Shown piece after piece: positions 2,035 through 59,788 of a stretch of DNA of 64,000 bases (position 1 is the first letter of the stretch; each line of letters starts with the position of its first letter). Origin of the DNA: Acidobacteriota bacterium (GTDB taxonomy: Bacteria > Acidobacteriota > UBA6911); the NCBI GenBank assembly GCA_037444305.1, contig JBBIMP010000029.1, forward strand, positions 2,758 to 66,757, written 5' to 3'. The translations under genes and the position numbers were made by a program. The notes under the pieces were generated by a model. The model was not told the origin of the DNA. It ran no database searches and worked only from the letters and a program-made list of their open reading frames with translations.

Positions 2035-5000
2035 ATGTTTAATCGAAGCAGCCGAATGAAGTTGCTTTCATTTTGGCTACTTTTTGCCGTGGCAATGCTC
2101 TCCGTGGCGCCCCAGTCCCTGGCCCAGGGAACCTCCGGCACCATCACCGGTGTCGTGAAAGACCAGTCGGGCGCCGTGGTTCCCGGGGTGACGGTTACGG
2201 TCCGTAGCCTCGAGACCAATGCCGGCCGGACGGTGGTTTCCGCCGCCGACGGGCGCTACACGGTCCCCGGCCTGACCCCGGGACCCTACGAGGTAACGGC
2301 GGAGCTGACCGGATTTGCCAAGTACGTCCGCTCCCCGATCAACCTCCTTCTGAACCAGAACGCGATCGTCGATCCGGAACTTCGCCCCGCAACCGCGGCC
2401 GAGACCGTGATCGTGACCGACGACGCGCCGCTGATCAACACCACGACCTCGGAAGTGGGCGTGCGCTTCGATGAGAAGCGGCTCTCCGACCTCCCGACCC
2501 TCCCCTCCGCGGGCGGCGGATTCCGCGACGTGTTCGCTTTCGCGCTTTCCGCGGCCGGAGTCAGCCAGCTCAACAGCGGGAATTCGGGCTTTGCCGCGGG
2601 CACCAACTTCTCCTCCAACGGGATGCGCCCGCGCGGCAACAACTTCATGGTGGACGGCCAGGACTCCAACGATCCGAGCGTTACCGGTAGAACCCAGGTC
2701 ATGAACAACCCGGACATCATCCGGGAGTTCCTGCTGGTGACCAACCAGTTCCAGGCCGAGCACGGCCGCGCCGCCGGGTCGGTCGTGAATGTCGTCACCA
2801 AGAGCGGGACGAACGAATTCCACGGCTCGCTGTTCTGGTTCAACAACAACAACGCGCTGAACTCGCTGAGCAACCTCGACAAGGCCGCCAAGATGACCGA
2901 GGCGCCCTTCCGGATTGAAAACCAGTTCGGAGGCACCCTGGGCGGGCCCGTGCTCAAAGACAGCATGTTCTTCTTCGGGTCGCTGCAGCGCTGGACCGAC
3001 CGGCAGATCGGTTCAGGGAGCACCATCACCGGCATCCCGACCGAGGCCGGCCGGGCAACCCTCCAGACGGTGGCCGGCAGCAGGCCCCAGGTGCAGGCGC
3101 TGTTGAAGCACCTCCCCGCCGCCACCACCCCGATCAACAAGACCGTGGCGCTGACCGTCGGCGGCCAGACCTACCAGATCCCGGTCGGCTCGCTGACCAA
3201 CTCTGCCGGCGCCACTTTCAACAACTGGCAGTGGTCGGGCCGCATCGACAAGACTCTGGGGAATCATTCGCTCGGAGGACGCTACCTTTACAACAACAGC
3301 GTCTCGGACGGTACTGGGCAGGCGACGCCTCCAGGCCTTACTACCTACGTTCCCTCGCGCCAGCAGGCAATGTCTCTGTTCCTCACGAGCAATCTGACCC
3401 CCAAAACGCTCAACGAGGCGCGGATCTCCTGGCAGAGGCTCGGAACCACAACCACGGCAGCCAACCCCGTTTCTGAGGAAATCCCCTCTCTGGAGATCAC
3501 AGAACTGGGTTTGACCGGCTTCAACGCCGCCGCCAGCCGCACGGCCGTCGGCCTCGCGGTCAACCTGCCGCAGTACCGCTTCAACAACACCTGGCAGCTG
3601 CAGGATACGATGTCGTGGATTCACAAGAACCACACCATCAAATTCGGGATCGACTTCCGCCGGATCGACGTGAAGAGCTTCTTCTTCCCGACCATCCGCG
3701 GACTGCTGCGCTACCCGACGCTGCAGCGCTTCGTGGACGACATTGCCGAGGCGGCCAACATCAACAAGCCCCTGCCGGGCGGCCAGGAGATCAACTACTA
3801 CGAGTGGAGCGACTACCACGCGTTCATCCAGGATACCTGGAGGGTGACGCCGCGGTTTACGCTCAACTTCGGCCTCCGGTACGAGCGGCCGGGCAACGCC
3901 ATGGCAAGCCTCTTCCCGCTGAACGAAAAGATCGTCCAGACCAACGGCGGCAACGCCGTCTTCCAGTTGAAGCCCAAGCCGGGCGACGACAACAACAACT
4001 TCCAGCCCCGAGTAGGATTCAGCTGGAATCCCGAGACCGGAACCGACGGCATCCTCGGCTGGCTGACCGGCGGCAACAAACTGGTCATGCGCGGCGGCTA
4101 TGCGCGGACGAACGACTACCAGTTCATCAACCTCGCGCTGAACGTCGCCAGCGCCTTCCCTTATGTGGCGGCCATCAACAGCTCCAACCTGGCCAATGCC
4201 TGGACGGTGCTGCCCAACCAGAGGGCCGACCTGAGCAACCCGGCTTCGTTGAACCTGCTTACCCGGACGGTGCTGGCGGAGGACTTCCGCGCGCCGATCG
4301 CCGAGCAGTTCTCGCTGGAATTCCAGCGCCAGATGGCGGCCAATACCGTCCTGCGCCTCGGCTACGTCGGGACCAAGGGGACGGGCCTGTTCCAGACAAT
4401 CGACGGCAACCCGCGGACCAAATGCGCCACGCCGCCGAACTGCCCCAGGGTGGATCCCCTGGCCGGCGTGATCCGGCTGCGCGCGAACGCGGCCGCCTCG
4501 ATCTATCACTCGATGCAGCTGAGCTTCGACAAGCGCTTCTCCAAGGGCTTCAGCGGCGGGTGGCACTACACCTGGAGCGCCTTCATCGACGACGCCTCCG
4601 ACACGTTCAATCCGTCGGTGCGCGGCGAGGTGGCGATTTCGCAGGACTCGTTCGACCGCCGCTCCGACCGTGGCCGGTCGACCTACGACAGGCCGCACCG
4701 CTTCTCGACCAACTTCGTCTACGAGCTGCCGTTCTTCCAGAATGACTCCGGCGCCCTGCGCCACATCCTGGGCGGCTGGCAGCTCGCCTCGTTCATCACC
4801 CTGCAGAGCGGATCGCCCTGGGGGCCGCTGAACGGAACCGATCCCGCCGGCGCGCTGGCGGGGATCGACGGCCTGGTGGGGAACGCCATCCGGCCGAACA
4901 TGAACACCAGTATCGCCGTGTCCAAGCTGTCGGTCGAAGACCTGCTGGCCCAGGGGGGCCGTTCCCTGTTCTCCACGCTGCCGACCAACGGTTCGCAGCG

Positions 5001-5311: not shown

Positions 5312-5384
5312 CCCACGCTCCTTGTGCAAAATGGGGGCGTTCGCCGTCGCCGCCTTCGTGCTGGCTCTTCAATGCGACCTTCCT

Positions 5385-5535
5385 CGGTGGCTCCGCGCTT
5401 CTGCTTCTGCCAATCATGCTTGCCGGCCGGGAGTCCACGGAGCCCGGAGCGACAGCGACGGGTCGCGCTGCTTGACCGGGTTGCAGGACCGCTCACTGGC
5501 GTTCGCGGCTTCCGTTTGCCGCGTATCTTCAATTC
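5385..5535 (+). repeat. Copy 1 of the modular interspersed repeat family (modules C-A-linker-B-C'), forward orientation.
   Basis: Shares ctgcttctgccaatcatgcttgccggccgggag, gcccggagcgacagcgacgggtcgc and gaccgctcactggcgttcgcggct(t)ccgtttgc with the copies at 22125 and 59490. Confidence 0.7.
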
Positions 5536-5610
5536 GGCTTTCCTCGGTTGCGGCCTCGGAGCGCAAGGCAGCTCGCCGGTGGCTTTTGTCTCCCGATCCG
5601 CTGCTCGTGC

Positions 5611-16864: not shown

Positions 16865-17110
16865 AACGGATGTAGATGAACAAGGGGTGCAGCCGCAACC
16901 AATGGCAGGCAAGGGGAGGAAAGCCGTGTTGACGGCACACGGCAAACGGAGCCCCGAACGATAGTGAGGGGTTGGGCAACCCAACTCACCATTGTTGCTC
17001 CTATCGGTCTTACGGGCACAGCCTGCATTTGGGCGGCCTGACCCGTCGCTATCGCTCCGGGCTCCGTTGAATTCCGACCGGCAAGCAAAAGCGGCAGACG
17101 GAGCGGCCTT
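16865..17110 (-). repeat. Copy 2 of the modular interspersed repeat (reverse orientation; C'-B'-linker'-A').
   Basis: acccgtcgctatcgctccgggctccgttga is the reverse complement of module A. ggcaaacggagccccgaacgatagtgagggg is the reverse complement of module B. Confidence 0.6.
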
Positions 17111-17420
17111 TAACCACTGCCGATGAGTTTCTCCACTCGCGGGAAAGATTTTGCGGGTTAGCGGCACAGAGAGACACGGAGTAAAACACTCTTGAGCAAC
17201 GGAGACTCCCTCACCTTTCTCGGCCCCGATGAGCACATCAACGTCATATTCAGATTCGGGGATGAGACACGATACCTGCGGACGGGCGAGGATGCCGGCC
17301 CGGCCCAGGAAGTGATGACAGTCCGCAAATCGGTCATCACCGAATTCAAAGCGGGCAGGCTGACGATGGAGGGATTGAAGCAGAGAATCCCGATCTATTG
17401 AAACCCGGCTGCGCGGCCCG

Positions 17421-18484: not shown

Positions 18485-18650
18485 AAAAAGCGTTACACGG
18501 AGGATCACAGAGTAGCACGGAGGTCCACGGAGAAAAACACGACGTCTCCCGCCCCCTGCGGCGGGAGACGTCGCAGATGCCTCGCCGGGCTTTTCTCCGT
18601 GCTCCGCGCTACTCCGTGTATCTCCGTGTGACGCTTTTCTTTTTCGAAAC
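18485..18650. repeat. Large CACGGAG-unit palindromic element with a nested 13-bp perfect hairpin, in the divergent intergenic region.
   Basis: Left arm cgttacacggaggatcacagagtagcacggaggtccacggagaaaaacac. Right arm ttttctccgtgctccgcgctactccgtgtatctccgtgtgacgcttttc. Centre gacgtctcccgcc-ccctgc-ggcgggagacgtc (18541-18572). Confidence 0.7.
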
Positions 18651-22124: not shown

Positions 22125-22350
22125 ATCTGTTCGGTCGTGCCTGCCGGCCGGGCGCCCACGGCGCCCGGAGCGGCAGCGACGGGTCGCTTCCCTCGATTGG
22201 GTTACCTGACCGCTCACTAGCGTTCGCGGCTCCGTTTGCCGCGTTACCCTCAACACGGCTTTCCTCGGCGGTTCCACGCTGCTATAACTGCCCATCGTGC
22301 CTGCCGGCCGGGAGCTCACAAAGCCCGGAGCGGCAGCGACGGGTCGCATT
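22125..22350 (+). repeat. Copy 3 of the modular interspersed repeat (A-linker-B-C-A).
   Basis: Contains gcccggagcggcagcgacgggtcgc twice, gaccgctcactagcgttcgcggctccgtttgc, and cggctttcctcggcggttccacgctgctataactgcccatcgtgcctgccggccgggag. Confidence 0.7.
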
Positions 22351-22412
22351 CCTCGACTGCAGCGACCCTGCACGGTGAAAAATCTCTCCCCCTGCCGAAA
22401 CATACAGCCTGC

Positions 22413-23753: not shown

Positions 23754-26183
23754 ATGAAAGCGAACGAGAAATCTCTAGTCATTGTCGAGTCCCCGGCCAA
23801 GGCCAGGACCATAAGCAGGTATCTCGGCAAGGGTTTTGCGGTCAAGGCGTCCGTGGGTCACATCAAGGACCTGCCCAAGAGCAAGCTGTCGGTGGACGTC
23901 GACAACGATTTCGCCCCGCACTACGCCGTCATCCCGGCAAAGAAAAAGGTCGTGAAAGAGCTTCAGAGGGCCGCGAAGGGGACCACGGCCATTTATCTGG
24001 CAGCCGACCCGGACCGCGAGGGAGAGGCAATCTGCCAGCACCTGGCGGAAGAACTTGCGGGCAAGGACCGAAACATCTACCGGGTTCTCTTTCACGAAAT
24101 CACCGAAAAGGCCATCCGGGCGGCTTTTGAAAAGCCCGGACAGATCAACACCCGCAAAGTGGACGCTCAACTGGCGCGCCGGATCCTGGACCGGCTCGTG
24201 GGTTACAAGATCAGCCCGCTCCTTTGGGAGAAAGTGCGCCGGGGCCTGTCGGCCGGAAGGGTGCAGACCGTGGCGCTGAGGATGATCGTGGAGCGCGAAA
24301 AGGAAATCCGAGCGTTTCTGCCGGAGGAGTACTGGAACCTCTCCGCCCTGCTGCTGGGCAACACGCCGCCCGAATTCAAGGCCAGGGCCCACAACCTCGA
24401 CGGGGAAAAATGGCAGGTAAGTGACGGCGAAACCGCTCGAGCGCTCGAGGAGGAGCTGAAGTCCGTCCCGTTTGTCGTCCGCAAGGTCCACCGCCGCGAG
24501 AAAAAGCGCTACCCCATCCCGCCGTTCATCACCAGCAAGCTGCAGCAGGATGCTGCCCGGCGGCTCGGTTTCTCGGTCAAGAAGACGATGACGCTGGCGC
24601 AGCGGCTGTACGAAGGGATCGAAATCGGCGACCGGGGACCGGCAGGCCTGATCACCTACATGAGAACCGACTCCACGCGCGTGGCCGAGGATGCCCTGCA
24701 CCAAGTGCGCGACCTCATCCTCAGGAACCACGGCGAGGCGTACCTGCCGCACCACCCGATCTACTACAAGTCCGGCAAGGCGGCGCAGGGGGCCCACGAA
24801 GCAATCCGCCCCACTTCACTCGACCTTCCTCCGGCAAAAGTGGAAGGCCTGCTCGAACCGGACCTGCAGAAGCTTTACACTCTGATCTGGAACAGGTTCG
24901 TCGCCTCCCAGATGAATCCCGCCATCTTCGATCAGACCGATGTGCAAATCGAGGCGGGCAGGGTCGGGTTCAAAGCGACCGGCTCGATTCTCAAGTTCGA
25001 CGGCTTCCTGGCCGTCTACCAGGAAGCCAGGTCGGAGGAGCAGCGGTTGGCCGAGGCCGAAAGGGAGGGGGAAGGCCTCCTGCCTCAACTATCGGAGGGC
25101 GACCGGCTGGAATTGCGGAAACTGGATGCCACGCAGCATTTCACGCAGCCGCCGCCCCGCTACAACGAGGCCAGCCTGGTCAAGGCCCTGGAGACGCGGG
25201 GCATCGGCCGCCCCAGCACCTATGCTTCCATCCTCGCAACGATACAGAGCCGCGAGTACGTCGCCAAAACCGACGGCAGGTTCCTGCCCACCGAAACCGG
25301 CGAGGTGGTCGTGGATCTGCTGGTGGAGAGCTTCCACGAGCTCTTCGACTACGAATACACGGCCAGAATGGAGGGCCACCTGGACCGCATCGAGTCGGGC
25401 CGGGAAGGCTGGGTGGAGACGCTGCGGGAATTCTACGACAAGTTCGCCCAAAAGCTCGAGGTCGCCAAGAAGGAGATGAAGGCGATCAAGCGGGAGGAAA
25501 TCCCCACCGACGAGGCCTGCGAGAAGTGCGGCAAGAACATGGTCATTAAGTGGGGGCGCTTCGGGCGCTTCATGGCCTGCTCCGGCTACCCCGACTGCAA
25601 GAACACGAAGGAAATCTTCAAAAACGGGGCCGAGGAGGGGGACGAGAGCTCGGCGGCGCTGGAGGAAATCCAGTGCGAGAAGTGCGGCAGCCCAATGGTT
25701 CTCAAACGGGGCCGCTTTGGCGAGTTCATGGCCTGCTCCGCCTATCCGGAGTGCCGCAACACCAGGCGGATCCACAAGTCCGCGGGCAGCCTGGAGGTCA
25801 AGCGGGACATACCGCTGGATGAGACGTGCCCGCAGTGCGGCAGAAACCTGGCCCTGAAGCACGGACGCTTCGGAGAGTACACGGCCTGTTCCGGCTATCC
25901 CGACTGCAAGTACATCAAGCACAAGACCACGGGCGTGGCCTGCGGCAAAAACTGCGGGGGCGAGGTGGTGGAGAGAAAATCGCGCCGCGGGAAGGTCTTC
26001 TTCGGCTGCTCCCGATATCCCGATTGCGACTTCGTGCTCTGGCACCGACCGCTGCCCGAGCCCTGCCCGGAGTGCGAAGCGCCCTACACGCTGTACAAGA
26101 CCACCAAGCGCACCGGGCCGATACGCTATTGCGCCGGGGAAGAATGCAGCTTCAAAGAGCCTCTGGACAACTCCGATTCATGA
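23754..26183 (+). CDS. topA: DNA topoisomerase I.
   Basis: Toprim start MKANEKSLVIVESPAKARTISRYLG, an active-site Tyr region, and four C-terminal C4 zinc ribbons (CEKCGKNM..., CEKCGSPM..., CPQCGRNL..., CGKNCGGE...). Confidence 0.9.
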   Translation: MKANEKSLVIVESPAKARTISRYLGKGFAVKASVGHIKDLPKSKLSVDVDNDFAPHYAVIPAKKKVVKELQRAAKGTTAIYLAADPDREGEAICQHLAEELAGKDRNIYRVLFHEITEKAIRAAFEKPGQINTRKVDAQLARRILDRLVGYKISPLLWEKVRRGLSAGRVQTVALRMIVEREKEIRAFLPEEYWNLSALLLGNTPPEFKARAHNLDGEKWQVSDGETARALEEELKSVPFVVRKVHRREKKRYPIPPFITSKLQQDAARRLGFSVKKTMTLAQRLYEGIEIGDRGPAGLITYMRTDSTRVAEDALHQVRDLILRNHGEAYLPHHPIYYKSGKAAQGAHEAIRPTSLDLPPAKVEGLLEPDLQKLYTLIWNRFVASQMNPAIFDQTDVQIEAGRVGFKATGSILKFDGFLAVYQEARSEEQRLAEAEREGEGLLPQLSEGDRLELRKLDATQHFTQPPPRYNEASLVKALETRGIGRPSTYASILATIQSREYVAKTDGRFLPTETGEVVVDLLVESFHELFDYEYTARMEGHLDRIESGREGWVETLREFYDKFAQKLEVAKKEMKAIKREEIPTDEACEKCGKNMVIKWGRFGRFMACSGYPDCKNTKEIFKNGAEEGDESSAALEEIQCEKCGSPMVLKRGRFGEFMACSAYPECRNTRRIHKSAGSLEVKRDIPLDETCPQCGRNLALKHGRFGEYTACSGYPDCKYIKHKTTGVACGKNCGGEVVERKSRRGKVFFGCSRYPDCDFVLWHRPLPEPCPECEAPYTLYKTTKRTGPIRYCAGEECSFKEPLDNSDS

Positions 26184-26227
26184 GGCGGCAAATCTCGGCT
26201 TCTACCATATAGAGACTTTATAAAAGG

Positions 26228-26306
26228 CCGCGGATTTCACTGATTACACGGACTAACGCGGCCGGCCGCCAGAGAATTGTCCGTGTAATCAGTGAAATCC
26301 GTGGCT
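26228..26306. terminator. CACGGAT-family palindromic element between convergent topA and the M28 peptidase gene. Likely a bidirectional terminator.
   Basis: Arms ccgcggatttcactgattacacggac and gtccgtgtaatcagtgaaatccgtgg with a spacer of about 25 nt. Confidence 0.5.
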
Positions 26307-26337: not shown

Positions 26338-27249
26338 CTATTTGGCGAAGCGCTCCTGAAGCTTGCCCAGCACCGCGATCACGAGCCTCCCGACCTTTTC
26401 CAGGCTGGCCGCGCTCAGCTTGTCCAGAGTGTCCTGCTCCGTGTGCCAGAAAGAGTTTCCGGGCCCGTACTCCAGGTCGATGATATCCACTGCGGGCACG
26501 CCGGCCGCCAGAAACGGCAGGTGGTCATCCTCGATGGCCGCCCTGTATGTGGAGAGGATGTCCTGCATCCCGATTTCGACCGCAGTTCTCCAGACCATCT
26601 CCATGAGCCAGGGCGTCGAGTTCATGTCCCGCAGGATGCCAAGGTCGCGGTCGCCGATCATATCCAGCAGAATCAGGGCCTTGATCCGGCTCAGCACCCC
26701 TTCTTCCTTCCATCGCTTTGCCAGGTGCCGGCTGCCATAGAGGCTGTCGAACGTGCTCCATTCGATGAAGGCCTCCTCACCGTCGAAGAAGATGAACCAG
26801 TAGTCCAGCCCGTCCTTGCTTTCGGCCAGGACCCTGGCCAATTCCAGCAGCAGCCCCGTGCTGCTGCCGGCATCGTTGGCGCCGACAAACCGGATCCCTT
26901 CCATGAGCTTCGTTTCATAGTGAGTGGCCAGGGCGATGACCCCCTTGTCCCCTGCACCTTTGCGCGCTATCAGGTTGTGCATGGGAATCGGGCCATACGG
27001 GGTTTGAGCAGTGAATGCGTCATCCTCGACCTGGTAGCCGAAGCCCTCCAGTTCGCCCCGGATCCAGTTCCGGCACTGTTTCAACTCCTCGGAGCCGGAG
27101 GGGCGGGGGCCGAATTCCACCTGCTTGCGGACGTATTCCAGCGCCCTCTCCCCGCTGAGCGATTCGGCCAGTTTCGCGGTGCCCGGGGACTGCGCGCAGG
27201 CGGAAGTGAGAAAGAAGAGCAGCATCAGGGCGGACGTCGCATGAAGCAT
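26338..27249 (-). CDS. M28 family zinc peptidase, secreted.
   Basis: Signal peptide MLHATSALMLLFFLTSACA. HYETK...DDAGSSTG...FFDGEE metal-binding motifs. Confidence 0.8.
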   Translation of the reverse strand: MLHATSALMLLFFLTSACAQSPGTAKLAESLSGERALEYVRKQVEFGPRPSGSEELKQCRNWIRGELEGFGYQVEDDAFTAQTPYGPIPMHNLIARKGAGDKGVIALATHYETKLMEGIRFVGANDAGSSTGLLLELARVLAESKDGLDYWFIFFDGEEAFIEWSTFDSLYGSRHLAKRWKEEGVLSRIKALILLDMIGDRDLGILRDMNSTPWLMEMVWRTAVEIGMQDILSTYRAAIEDDHLPFLAAGVPAVDIIDLEYGPGNSFWHTEQDTLDKLSAASLEKVGRLVIAVLGKLQERFAK

Positions 27250-27475
27250 GTTCCCTCCAAGGCAAGGTTCCGCCGCAGTATATTACAAATCGCCGCTGCG
27301 GCATAAGAATCCGACCGGCAATCAGAAATGGCAGAAGGAGTGGCCTTCATCCGTTCCGGCGAGAATTCTCGGCGTGTCGGAAGGCTGCCCCTTACCAATA
27401 AGACAGAGGCGCACACGGCGGATTTGGATTCGGCCAAGGACACGGGCACCGCCCGAATCCATAGGGTGTTCGGTT

Positions 27476-30453: not shown

Positions 30454-31412
30454 GCCAGAGAGACCGCCACTGGAAGATTGCGCCCGGGGAAACGCCTGCG
30501 CGGCTGGACCACCACCTCGCTGCGCTGCTGCCCGAGCACAGCCGCTCCAGGATCCAGGCCTGGATCCGCGGCGGCCACGTGCGGGTCAATCAAGTCCGCG
30601 TGAAAACCGGCTACATCATCCGCCCGGGCGACGAGATCTCCCTGCTCGAGCCCGAGACCTTCCCTTCCCAGCCCGAGCCGGAGAACCTCCCGCTCAGCAT
30701 CCTGTTCGAAGACCCGGACCTTGCGGTGGTCGACAAGCCTGCCGGCATGACCTGCCACACGGGCGCGGGCATCCGCACCGGAACCCTGGTCAACGCCCTG
30801 CTGTACCACTTCGGCCGCCTGGATGCAGGCGATCCCTCCCGCCCCGGGATCGTTCACCGGCTGGACAAACTGACCAGCGGCGTCCTCGTCGTGGCCCGGA
30901 ATCCGCGGTCCCACCGCCTGCTTTCGGCCCAGTTCAAGAGCCGGCAGGTCGGCAAAGCGTATACCGCCCTCGTCTTCGGCCAACCCAAAGCCGAGCGGGG
31001 CACCATCGACCTGCCGATCGGAAGGGCCCCTGCGAACCGGAAAAAGATCTCCGTCCGCGCGCGCCGGAAAAGAGCCGCGGTTACGCACTACCGGATTGCG
31101 GAGCGCTACGCGCAGCTGACGCTGCTGGACATCACAATCGAAACCGGGAGAACGCACCAGATCCGCGTGCACCTGGCGCACCTGGGCCATCCTGTCGTGG
31201 GGGACACGCTGTACGGCGGGAGGCGCAGCCGCGATATCCACGATCCGCTGCTGAGGGGCGAAATCGAAGGCCTGAACCGGTACTTTCTTCATGCCCGCAG
31301 CCTGGAATTCGATCACCCGCGGACCGGGAAGAGGCTGCGCTTCGAGGCGCCTCTGCCCCTGGAACTGCAACGGCTCCTCGATCTGCTGAAAAGGTGTAGA
31401 CAAAAGCATTAG
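30450..31412 (+). CDS. RluA-family pseudouridine synthase (RluD-like), TTG start overlapping the lgt stop.
   Basis: S4-like N-terminus. HRLDKLTSGVLVVAR catalytic Asp motif. GRTHQIRVHLAHLGHPVVGD. Confidence 0.8.
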   Translation: MSQRDRHWKIAPGETPARLDHHLAALLPEHSRSRIQAWIRGGHVRVNQVRVKTGYIIRPGDEISLLEPETFPSQPEPENLPLSILFEDPDLAVVDKPAGMTCHTGAGIRTGTLVNALLYHFGRLDAGDPSRPGIVHRLDKLTSGVLVVARNPRSHRLLSAQFKSRQVGKAYTALVFGQPKAERGTIDLPIGRAPANRKKISVRARRKRAAVTHYRIAERYAQLTLLDITIETGRTHQIRVHLAHLGHPVVGDTLYGGRRSRDIHDPLLRGEIEGLNRYFLHARSLEFDHPRTGKRLRFEAPLPLELQRLLDLLKRCRQKH

Positions 31413-31435
31413 AGGAAAGCTGAATTGAAGATACA

Positions 31436-31635
31436 CGACAAGCGGAGCCGCGAACGCCAGTGAGCGGTCGGGTGACCCACCAAAGTAACACAACCCGTCG
31501 CTGCCGCTCCGGGCTCCGCGGGCGCCCGACCGGAAATCACGATGGGCAGTTACAGCAGCGTGGAACCGCCGAGGAAAGCCGTGTTGAGGATAACGCGGCA
31601 AGCGGAGCCGCAATTGCCGGTGAGCGATCAGGCGG
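31436..31635 (-). repeat. Copy 4 of the modular interspersed repeat (reverse orientation; B'-linker'-A'-C'-B').
   Basis: gcggagccgcgaacgccagtgagcggtc, acccgtcgctgccgctccgggc and gcagttacagcagcgtggaaccgccgaggaaagccgtgttgagg are reverse complements of modules B, A and C. Confidence 0.7.
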
Positions 31636-31719
31636 CCTGGTTTTCTTGACTCGCCGGGGGCGGCTCCCTATAATTCGCTCATGTAAAACGTCTGCAGCCA
31701 TGGAGATAGAGCGAAAGTC

Positions 31720-35918: not shown

Positions 35919-36461
35919 ATGAGCCGGAGAATCGAGGTTCTTCAGGGCGACATCACGCTGCGGAAGGTGGACGCCATCGTCAATGCGGCCAACAGCTCGC
36001 TGCTGGGCGGCGGCGGCGTGGATGGAGCCATCCACCGCGCGGCCGGGCCCCGGCTGCTGGAGGAGTGCCGCACCCTGGGCGGATGCCCCACCGGATCGGC
36101 CAGGATCACCGCGGGGTACAACCTGCCCGCCGCGCACGTGATCCACACCGTCGGCCCGGTCTGGCGCGGCGGCGATGCGGGCGAAGGCGAACTGCTGGCC
36201 TCCTGCTACCGCAAGTCGCTCGAGCTGGCCAGGGAGCACCGGCTGAAATCGGTCGCCTTCCCTTCGATCAGCACCGGCGCCTACCGGTTCCCCGTCGACC
36301 GCGCCGCGCGGATCGCCGTCCGTGAAATCGCCGCCTTCCTGTCCGAACACGACCTGCCGGAGCGCGTGCAGATCGTCTGCTTCGACGCCGCCACCAGGGA
36401 CTGCTACAGCAGAGCTCTCGCCGCTTTTGAGTCCACAGCAGCCACGGATTTCACGGACTGA
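35919..36461 (+). CDS. Macro-domain protein (O-acetyl-ADP-ribose deacetylase, YmdB-like).
   Basis: [37 protein letters not shown] ... [18 protein letters not shown] before the ATG at 35919. Confidence 0.8.
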
Positions 36462-36532
36462 GTGGATTTCTCCATGGTCGGGCCGGCAGCCGCTGAATGG
36501 CTGATTCCGTAGAATCTGTGAAATCTGTGGCC
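36441..36532. terminator. CACGGAT-family palindromic element overlapping the macro-gene stop.
   Basis: gccacggatttcacggactgagtggatttc ... attccgtagaatctgtgaaatctgtggc. Confidence 0.45.
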
Positions 36533-43072: not shown

Positions 43073-43150
43073 GCGGCCACGGATTACGCGGATTACACTG
43101 TCGCTTGATTTCGTGTAATCTGTGAAATCCGTGGCTGCTGTATTTTTTTG
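43073..43150. terminator. CACGGAT-family palindromic terminator after the czc operon (T-run present).
   Basis: gcggccacggattacgcggattacac ... gtgtaatctgtgaaatccgtggctgc followed by tattttttt. Confidence 0.6.
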
Positions 43151-44978: not shown

Positions 44979-45060
44979 CAGCCACGGATTGCACGGATTA
45001 CACAGATTTTGTTTCCTCTCAATTCGTGTAATCCGTGCAATCCGTGGCTGGAGTTTTTTT
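44979..45060. terminator. CACGGAT-family palindromic terminator (T-run present).
   Basis: cagccacggattgcacggattacacagatt ... aattcgtgtaatccgtgcaatccgtggctgg followed by agttttttt. Confidence 0.6.
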
Positions 45061-49724: not shown

Positions 49725-49746
49725 AGGCTGCGTCCACCAAAACCTC

Positions 49747-49801
49747 GGCCACGAATTGCACGAATTTCGTGGAATTCGTGCAATTCGTGGCCGTCGTTTT
49801 T
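49747..49801. terminator. CACGAAT-variant palindromic bidirectional terminator between qor and the aminotransferase gene.
   Basis: ggccacgaattgcacgaatttcgtggaattcgtgcaattcgtggcc followed by gtcgttttt. Confidence 0.6.
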
Positions 49802-55389: not shown

Positions 55390-55429
55390 GTCTCCGTGCT
55401 TCTCCGTGGACCTCCGTGTGACGCTTTTG
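55390..55429. repeat. CACGGAG-family half-element (three ctccgtg units) in the divergent region between the cPGS-like gene and mutS2.
   Basis: gtctccgtgcttctccgtggacctccgtgtgacgcttttg. The AT-rich stretch 55331-55386 is adjacent. Confidence 0.5.
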
Positions 55430-55473
55430 TTTTTCTCCCCCCCAAACGGCATGATAGGCTTCCGGCCTACCCT

Positions 55474-57876: not shown

Positions 57877-57924
57877 TGCGCTTAAAGAGCCTGCTTGCTC
57901 AGGAATGCGGGAAACGGCGCCGCG

Positions 57925-58072
57925 ATAACAACGAGCGGTCAGGCGGCCCAGTCAGGCAACACAACCCGTCGCTGCCGCTCCGGGCGCCGTTGACTCCCGG
58001 CCGGCAAGCACGATTGGCACATGCAGCAGCGTGGAACCACCGAGGAAAGCCGTATTAGCGGGAGCGGCAAAC
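57925..58072 (-). repeat. Copy 5 of the modular interspersed repeat (reverse orientation), abutting a truncated IMPase gene.
   Basis: acccgtcgctgccgctccgggcgccgttgactcccggccggcaagca (A') and gcagcagcgtggaaccaccgaggaaagccgtattagcg (C'). Confidence 0.65.
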
Positions 58073-58230
58073 CTTGGGATTACGCCCCCGCGCGCATCAT
58101 CGCCGCCGAGTGCGGCGCCCTGTTCCTCACCCAGGACGGCAGCGCAAGGATCGATGCCGGCCACTGCGTGATCTGCGCGCCGGGGCTCGAGGAAGAAATC
58201 CGGAAGATTCTGCGGATTCCCCGCCGCTGA
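58072..58230 (+). pseudogene. 3' remnant of an inositol-monophosphatase-family (SuhB/CysQ/HisN-like) gene, truncated at the repeat boundary.
   Basis: PWDYAPARIIAAECGALFLTQDGSARIDAGHCVICAPGLEEEIRKIL matches the IMPase C-terminal WD(F/Y)AAG..EAGG..D motif. No upstream IMPase N-terminal sequence is present. The repeat occupies that position. Confidence 0.55.
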
Positions 58231-59381: not shown

Positions 59382-59489
59382 GCAACTCCTTTCCTGCAGA
59401 TTCAGGATCCTGCCGGAAGACAAATCCCCTGCCGTGGAAGGAGCATTCCCGCGGCCATGGATAAATTGTTTTCCATCTGCGGTCCGTGC

Positions 59490-59740
59490 TTGCCGGTCAG
59501 AAGTTCACGGCGCCCGGAGCGACAGCGACGGGTTGCATTTCGGGAGCAAGCCATTTGACCGCTCACTGGCGTTCGCGGCTCCGTTTGCATCATTCCTTCA
59601 ACGCGGCTTTCCTCGGCGGCTCCGTGCTGCTGCTTCTGCCAATCATGCTTGCCGGCCGGGAGTCAACGGCGCCCGGAGCGACAGCGACGGGTTGCATTTC
59701 GGGAGCAAGCCATTTGACCGCTCACCGTGCGCCGTCAACA
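59490..59740 (+). repeat. Copy 6 of the modular interspersed repeat, present as about 1.6 tandem units (A-linker-B-C-A-linker-B').
   Basis: ttcacggcgcccggagcgacagcgacgggttgcatttcgggagcaagccatttgaccgctcac occurs twice, about 155 bp apart. Confidence 0.75.
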
Positions 59741-59788
59741 CAGCCTTCCTCTCCATGCCCAGATGACGAGGTAGCCTTGAATTGGAGG

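Follow-up and report, generated by a model that had tools for sequence, protein, structure and literature searches.

Class 3 of the single-tyrosine (Y1) HUH proteins is a small group defined by Quentin et al. (2018, BMC Genomics 19:475, PMC6006769) through the motifs NHVH, W[TA] and YV[VI][AENY]EQ, with hosts among Planctomycetes, Acidobacteria and Proteobacteria. Its genes and the accompanying hairpin repeats were described in that paper from sequence inspection, and as rare. The repeats, similar to repetitive extragenic palindromes (REPs), carry a CnGA foot, reach about 600 copies in Solibacter usitatus, and are represented in Table S1 of the same paper by CCGAG-CCGC-GA-CC-GTAA-GG-GA-GCGG (Legionella), ACGAG-CCGG-AA-GC-GTGA-GC-GA-CGGG (Planctomyces limnophilus) and CGGAG-CCGC-GA-CC-GTAA-GG-GA-GCG (Solibacter). 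Di Nocera et al. (2013, PMC3733652) had grouped REPs according to whether they carry GTAG or CGTC as a tag. The present analysis concerns a stretch of 64,000 nucleotides from contig JBBIMP010000029.1 of an Acidobacteriota bacterium, hereafter the window, in which a modular repeat of three parts, A, B and C, occurs at six loci. These loci are quite probably clusters, built like bacterial interspersed mosaic elements (BIMEs), of REP-type elements belonging to the class that flanks class 3 TnpA_Y1 genes (HUH, single-tyrosine, IS200-like). The hairpin architecture with its covariation, and the identity of the module-A core with repeats around a class-3-type Y1 gene elsewhere, are shown below.

Hairpin architecture of the repeat

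A sequence-only reading of the window had reported six copies in both orientations, and a repeat search finds all six close to where they had been placed. Identity between copies is 63-91%, and nhmmer with one unit as query retrieves 6/6 loci, which are distributed over 54 kb:

5367-5547, plus strand: locus 1, order C-A-linker-B-C'
16900-17119, minus strand: locus 2, order A, 68-nt linker, B, C'
22131-22353, plus strand: locus 3, order A-B-C-A
31412-31641, minus strand: locus 4, order B(degenerate)-C-A-B-C'
57911-58072, minus strand: locus 5, order C-A-B(degenerate)
59484-59759, plus strand: locus 6, order A-B-C-A-B(internally deleted)-C'

The conserved heart of both A and B is one 20-nt hairpin plan, N4-GA-N2-GNNA-N2-GA-N4, with a CGGAG-like foot on its 5' side; the foot leads into a stem of 4 bp, which is interrupted by a tandem G.A/G.A internal loop, continues for 2 bp and is capped by a GNNA loop. 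Perfect hairpins, i.e. those with all six pairs intact, number 13 in the window and lie without exception within the six loci, against 0.06 expected from 100 dinucleotide shuffles. In module A the hairpin reads acggag-CCCG-GA-GC-GRYA-GC-GA-CGGG, and in module B, on the opposite strand, acggag-CCGC-GA-AC-GCCA-GT-GA-GCGG. The architecture is thus common to both and the stems differ (CCCG/CGGG plus GC/GC in A; CCGC/GCGG or CCCC/GGGG plus AC/GT in B). The GA strand is the top strand in A and the bottom strand in B, so each unit constitutes an inverted pair with the feet outside. In the terms of Di Nocera et al. such a unit is an HH dimer, or REPIN-like. The individual hairpins are as follows:

5443-5462, plus strand: A hairpin of locus 1, CCCG-GA-GC-GACA-GC-GA-CGGG, foot acggag
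5489-5508, minus strand: B hairpin of locus 1, CCGC-GA-AC-GCCA-GT-GA-GCGG, foot cggaag
17042-17061, minus strand: A hairpin of locus 2, GATA loop, foot acggag
16952-16971, plus strand: B hairpin of locus 2, CCCC-GA-AC-GATA-GT-GA-GGGG
22164-22183, plus strand: A hairpin of locus 3, foot acggcg
22210-22229, minus strand: B hairpin of locus 3, GCTA loop, foot acggag
22324-22343, plus strand: A hairpin of the second unit of locus 3, foot acaaag
31494-31513, minus strand: A hairpin of locus 4, foot gcggag
31448-31467, plus strand: B hairpin of locus 4, foot gcggag
31608-31627, plus strand: degenerate B hairpin of locus 4, CCGC-AA-TT-GCCG-GT-GA-GCGA
57965-57984, minus strand: A hairpin of locus 5, foot acggcg
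57920-57938, plus strand: degenerate B hairpin of locus 5 with a 1-nt deletion, CCGC-GA-TA-ACAA-CG-A-GCGG as read from the sequence
59513-59532, plus strand: A hairpin of locus 6, foot acggcg
59559-59578, minus strand: B hairpin of locus 6, foot acggag
59672-59691, plus strand: A hairpin of the second unit of locus 6, foot acggcg

The repeat has a period of 159-160 bp (A to A, 160 bp at 22164/22324 and 159 bp at 59513/59672; B to B, 160 bp at 31448/31608). Within a unit, A (plus) is separated by about 25 nt between the hairpins from B (minus), and about 95 nt including module C then lead to the next A hairpin. The copy alignment resolves each locus into 1 to 1.7 units of a C-A-linker-B cycle with a phase varying by locus, in agreement with the cyclic permutations and partial tandems of modules proposed earlier. 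This arrangement, REPs of alternating orientation with two kinds of conserved linker in tandem, is that of a BIME-type cluster. The spacer between hairpin pairs, formed by module C with the start of module A, is conserved; linkers vary in the alignment while the hairpin sequence is strongly conserved. The most conserved stretch is the 21-mer CCCGGAGCGRYAGCGACGGGT, present in 8 copies in the window against 0.02 expected from shuffles. Module C also bears a truncated foot and a half-stem, ACGGAGCCGC, as read from the sequence. A possible decayed copy is the short hairpin-free piece TCCGACCGGCAATCAGAAATGGCAGAAGGAGTGGCC at 27310-27352 (minus strand), which has similarity to the beginning of module A and to the end of C; its neighbours are genes at 27249/27328.

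Covariation was evaluated on 56 distinct foot-plus-hairpin variants, combining the A and B copies of the window with copies from other genomes and the published examples. The six proposed pairs show standard pairing in 89.3% of cells, compared with 73.6 +/- 1.5% after shuffling, and control registers slid by 1-3 columns are paired at 25-47%. Two-sided changes occur in 43 cells against 13.6 +/- 2.5 in shuffled data, a value reached by 0/500 shuffles. Within the window, the outer stem CCCC/GGGG of the B hairpin at 16952 is such a compensatory change relative to the CCGC/GCGG of the other B copies. The sample was gathered by similarity to a self-complementary core and so favours pairing, but this bias does not account for the surplus of two-sided changes (CG to GC at two positions of the stem; GC to CG/AU in the inner stem), and the compensatory changes support the hairpin. 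The hairpin is also strand-asymmetric, the tandem G.A pairs and the GNNA loop being present on one strand only.

Beyond the single hairpin no larger fold is apparent. Shuffled versions of the whole unit fold better than the unit itself, be it as DNA or RNA and whichever strand is taken (z = +1.3 to +1.9), and A and B do not pair into a long hairpin, A-linker-B folding at -18.2 kcal/mol compared with -17.7 for shuffles. The earlier proposal that modules pair with each other within a transcript was dropped on these grounds. The GCTCCG and CGGAGC words on which it was based are indeed present, but as the 5' feet of opposed hairpins: they are complementary because the A and B hairpins have their feet in opposite orientation, and they do not count as evidence that modules pair. 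The Rfam search that the sequence-only reading had recommended returns no match at gathering score over the window and nothing above chance level at E<=10 over locus 6.

Related hairpins in other genomes and a class 3-type gene

The bracket structure of the window hairpin is identical to the notation of Table S1 (PMC6006769), where module A is nearest to the Planctomyces type and module B to the Solibacter and Legionella type. Assignment to the GTAG or CGTC REP superfamilies (PMC3733652) was rejected, since neither tag is found at the foot of the hairpin. The GT[AG]G foot typical of REPs and REPINs of class 2 REP-associated tyrosine transposases (RAYTs) is likewise missing there, and GTAG occurs only in the loop of some variants from other genomes.

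A Y1 profile built from the alignment in PMC3733652 was searched over the fetched loci and recovers one open reading frame (ORF), located at 2796-3185 of L050, a metagenome-assembled genome (MAG) of Aridibacter. The ORF begins 40 nt 3' of a canonical core, contains NHVH, ends before the tyrosine motif and matches the Pfam family Y1_Tnp (E = 1.4e-6). A regular expression for the class 3 motifs finds no match in the loci or the window, because this sole gene present is cut before the Y motif. Full-length homologues of the L050 ORF are 169-172 aa long and possess NVRTNHVH, YLWNE and Y-V-x-x-G-Q, the last being the class 3 Y-x4-Q signature. One family member, P0001, is a 172-aa Y1_Tnp protein with NVRTNHVH and Y-x4-Q encoded in a 4.5-Mb Acidobacteriota genome (CP065003.1; L076). 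Its gene has 13 head-to-tail copies of C[AG]GTA-CCCGGAGCGGTAGCGACGGG upstream and one inverted copy downstream, an arrangement that is a REPtron with the module-A core. The array (2580-2971, 31-bp period; inverted copy at 3542-3561) is unusually long for the flank of a REPtron. Related hairpins that keep the same foot flank three further family members: CAGAA-CCACC-TGCGTAAGCG-GGTGG, in 4 copies upstream and 6 inverted copies downstream, CGGAA-CCGCC...GGCGG, and CAGAA-CCGAGCGCGGTAGCGCCGG. The family, to which the Joint Genome Institute (JGI) often gives the name "REP element-mobilizing transposase RayT", comprises at least 7080 members at E<=1e-5 in a large protein collection. The novelty originally attributed to the repeat does not stand, as the kind is already known: the foot-plus-hairpin matches class 3 sequences (PMC6006769), and an identical core flanks such a gene elsewhere.

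A scan for the 21-mer in a collection of species-representative genomes gives at least 68 loci. Among those listed, core matches fall mostly into two phyla, Acidobacteriota (Pyrinomonadaceae, Blastocatellia, Aridibacter, Chloracidobacterium, Bryobacteraceae) and Planctomycetota (Phycisphaerae, Planctomycetales, Gemmataceae, Thermogutta), and a handful in Gammaproteobacteria, Haloarcula and Acidimicrobiales appear to be coincidental or coding. Between phyla the 20-nt core hardly varies. The words 5' of it elsewhere are CAGAA, CAGTA, CCGAA, CTAG, CGAG or CAGAG, and it often has an inverted partner 20-100 nt further on, e.g. CCGG-GA-GC-GATA-GC-GA-CCGG. Clusters in other genomes have periods of their own: 204 bp in L030, a 36-bp array in L039, and a 293-bp array of B-type pairs in L091. 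The exact core is also present in MAGs of Flavobacteriales (L063, 887-1151; L067, 3819-3838), where it sits among GACCCCGAAGGGGTC hairpins, and of Dehalococcoidia (L021, 1150-1275); these groups lie outside the phyla reported for class 3, and mis-binning is possible.

The B-type hairpin is found in ten other metagenome contigs. B-type hairpins with a foot at L083 2372-2391, L084 248-267 and 2107-2126, and L090 181-200 sit within what is apparently one conserved coding region and may be either an intragenic REP or a chance match. The A+B composite has no match in one scan of metagenome contigs, and by its sequence distribution it is the 160-bp A/B/C composite alone that appears lineage-specific. 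No match to the unit occurs in a plasmid collection, and a literal search of the literature for the core sequence is equally empty. ORF clustering around the 68 core-bearing loci listed gives no recurrent neighbour protein; a STAS-domain-like cluster of neighbours was judged incidental from its sequence. A route through Legionella was also abandoned: blastn of the published repeats against plasmid records leads to L. adelaidensis, in which the copies are intergenic beside housekeeping genes with no Y1 gene nearby.

Genomic context and turnover

When genes are called from third-position GC and checked against Pfam, all six loci fall between them, which bears out the earlier statement that the repeat is always intergenic. 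The neighbours are ordinary housekeeping genes:

Locus 1: between a convergent TonB-type outer-membrane protein gene (ends 5247) and a NuoM-like gene (ends 5673)
Locus 2: between a deaminase-kinase gene (stop 17421) and a CYTH gene (start 16830), both on the minus strand
Locus 3: between a divergent MqnA-like gene (start 22110, minus strand) and dprA (start about 22440, plus strand)
Locus 4: between an RluD-like gene (stop 31410-31412), whose stop codon it touches as the upstream gene, and a VWA gene (start 31720)
Locus 5: between mutS2 (ends 57876) and the remnant of an inositol monophosphatase (IMPase) gene
Locus 6: fills the 365-bp spacer between DUF7790 (start 59423) and a gene for 119 aa (stop 59789)
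58060-58230, plus strand: C-terminal IMPase remnant of 56 codons, starting at the edge of locus 5

Loci 1 and 5 are situated between convergent genes, locus 3 between divergent starts, and loci 2, 4 and 6 between co-directional genes; locus orientation shows no relation to the direction of the flanking genes. The 64-kb window contains no tRNA genes. Its MutS2 has its nearest named homologues in Acidobacteriota/Blastocatellia at 55-60% identity, and blastx of the window against the fetched core-bearing loci reveals no close relative.

L081, a relative with the gene order of the window around mutS2, is free of GA hairpins over 8.4 kb. L081 encodes a complete IMPase of 252 aa at the position occupied in the window by locus 5 and the last 56 codons of the gene; in the window only profile positions 216-261 of 271 of Inositol_P are matched (E = 1.6e-3). 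The earlier remark that one copy abuts a truncated IMPase gene is thereby upheld, with the 56-codon fragment at the edge of locus 5 and the full 252-aa gene in syntenic L081. Similarly, L081 has a 4-bp overlap between the DUF7790 gene and its neighbour, two genes that the 365-bp spacer with locus 6 separates in the window. A lineage-specific presence of clusters, one of them abutting a truncated IMPase gene, is thus shown. L070, a short-read contig of the same strain (Logan SRR11582151), ends at 5529 inside locus 1, as is expected of an assembly break because the sequence is multi-copy.

Other repeats are present in the window. A second intergenic family, TCCGTGTAATCTGTGAAATCCGTGGCT, occurs at 26226-26306, 36440-36532, 43075-43136, 44980-45049, about 49735-49792 and 664-690, mostly as inverted pairs 8-40 nt apart and often followed by a T-run; it looks REPIN-like or terminator-like and is unrelated in sequence to the GA hairpin. 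A 44-nt repeat with three CTCCGTG words and then a T-run is found in two copies, 89% identical, at gene boundaries (18602-18645 and 55392-55435), and a stretch similar to it lies near 17170-17195. An apparent tandem of 3 x 155 bp at 25496-25919 is the coding zinc-ribbon region of the topoisomerase I gene (23754-26183), with four Zn_ribbon_Top1 matches.

Interpretation and comparison with known systems

If the loci are REP-type clusters of class 3, a cognate class 3 Y1 enzyme, assumed to be encoded elsewhere in the genome, would recognise foot and hairpin on single-stranded DNA, probably at replication forks, and by cutting at the foot and rejoining would disperse the elements, by analogy with TnpA of IS200/IS605 and TnpA_REP of E. 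coli. Tandem growth and variable phase would be secondary, arising by recombination or slippage between neighbouring copies, which may also cause deletions such as the truncation of the IMPase gene. Any role at the level of the host (termination, mRNA stability, protein binding) would be secondary as well. It is conceivable, though we regard it as rather doubtful, that the 160-bp A/B/C unit is a currently active non-autonomous element, a heterodimer of two different hairpins of class 3 type that a Y1 HUH enzyme moves as a whole and that can delete host genes such as the IMPase gene. The near-invariant GA hairpin would then indicate a recent spread of REPtrons across phyla or a strict structural demand of the enzyme.

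Several observations weigh against attributing the clusters to a class 3 enzyme. The feet of the 13 hairpins are heterogeneous (CGGAG in 7/13, CGGCG in 4/13, CAAAG in 1/13 and CGGAAG in 1/13), so that a CnGA-type foot, CGGA plus G, is found in 7/13 window hairpins only; in other genomes it reads CAGA, CCGA, CGGA, CAGT or CTAG. Single hairpins have low stability, with DNA folding energies of -4.5 to -6 kcal/mol that shuffles match. Variable locus ends and a unit conserved beyond its two hairpins are left unexplained by simple hairpin-guided transposition. The 64-kb window holds no Y1 gene, the presence of the cognate enzyme in the genome being an assumption, and L081, on which the empty-site comparison is based, is distant (59% MutS2 identity). 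Finally, neither PMC3733652 (2013) nor PMC6006769 (2018) reports an activity test of a class 3 enzyme.

The sequence-only reading had offered a miniature inverted-repeat transposable element (MITE), a BIME/REP-like mosaic or a family of structured small RNAs, among which the mosaic fits the evidence, the MITE fails and the RNA is not supported. Structured small RNAs or cis-regulatory RNA elements, with the GA hairpin as a protein-bound RNA motif, would account for the covariation of the hairpin, for its tandem G.A pairs and GNNA loop on one strand, and for copies just downstream of genes. Orientation is unrelated to the flanking genes, one copy lying between divergent gene starts; GA hairpins occur on both strands of every unit; Rfam comes up empty both at its gathering score and at E<=10; and neither strand of the whole unit folds as well as its shuffles. 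The small RNA reading is therefore not supported. With 13 head-to-tail copies and an inverted one around a transposase gene in L076, no promoter-like sites near loci 5 and 6, and terminator-like sites no commoner than in shuffles, we consider it quite improbable. Sites of host function, selected and no longer mobile (nucleoid protein or gyrase binding, or terminators, as proposed for E. coli BIMEs), would agree with the strong conservation of the hairpin between variable linkers, with the near-invariant 20-nt core across phyla and with two loci lying between convergent genes; clusters are missing from syntenic L081, one truncates a gene and another lies between divergent promoters. As a full explanation host function is improbable, and as a secondary role it is compatible with REP-type clusters of class 3.

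A MITE, which derives by deletion from a DDE-type insertion sequence, moves by its terminal inverted repeats and duplicates its target site, is suggested by a repeat that is short, dispersed and non-coding, with A and B mutually inverted and one copy at a truncated gene. But the ends of the six loci fall at different points of the cycle, and the copy alignment, proposed earlier as a way to define element ends and target-site duplications, yields no fixed ends, terminal inverted repeats or consistent flanking duplications, as read from the six loci. A and B are moreover different hairpin types and not one terminal repeat copied, the gene found with the core is of the Y1 (HUH) and not the DDE type, and the 68 loci listed share no recurrent neighbour protein; a MITE is accordingly very unlikely. 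A local segmental duplication or minisatellite limited to the contig, with no wider family, would be in keeping with the missing A+B composite in the one metagenome-contig scan, and is hardly credible given six loci across 54 kb in both orientations, the independent same-strain assembly breaking inside locus 1, and the A and B hairpins each occurring in many other genomes and metagenomes.

For class 3 as described, these data add that the exact 20-nt hairpin is common to phyla and kept by compensatory change, that clusters come and go between related genomes, and that the class 3-type protein family is not rare in metagenomes, with its at least 7080 homologues. P0001 together with CAGTA-CCCGGAGCGGTAGCGACGGG is an example of a defined substrate/enzyme pair for a first biochemical test of class 3. 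The hairpin pattern also provides a simple marker to annotate repeats that break short-read assemblies of soil Acidobacteriota.

Pneumococcal BOX elements consist of boxA, boxB and boxC modules, and to our knowledge no Y1 enzyme is associated with them. They resemble the present loci as modular intergenic repeats with variable module number, and differ in having no sequence or structural relation to them. At the ends of IS200/IS605 elements, and of palindrome-associated transposable elements (PATEs), a Y1 HUH enzyme reads subterminal imperfect hairpins in single-stranded DNA, and each hairpin has a short motif for guiding or cleavage on its 5' side. The window repeat would share this plan; it has no defined left and right ends, no internal transposase, and many scattered, clustered copies.

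E. coli REPs and BIMEs with their RAYT (TnpA_REP), as well as Pseudomonas REPINs, are likewise short imperfect extragenic palindromes in inverted pairs with the feet outside. They too form clusters that alternate in orientation around conserved linkers, and repeats flank the single-copy Y1 HUH gene to which they are linked. In the window, GT[AG]G does not make up the foot, tandem G.A pairs break a shorter stem, and no long hairpin of REPIN type forms between A and B. The enzyme of these REP and REPIN systems carries Y-x3-NP against the Y-x4-Q of class 3, i.e. it represents a different class.

The class 3 REP-like sequences are the nearest relatives of the window repeat. The latter differs in that A and B hairpins are fixed with a conserved spacer in a tandem 160-bp unit, that the foot is degenerate in 6/13 window copies, and that the window lacks a cognate gene. 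Shared are, in 7/13 window hairpins, the CnGA plus one base foot and, throughout, the 4-bp stem, the GA/GA internal loop, the 2-bp stem and the G..A tetraloop, the many copies (six loci in 64 kb in the window), the hosts among Acidobacteria and Planctomycetes and, in another Acidobacteriota genome, an identical core flanking a gene with NHVH and Y-x4-Q.

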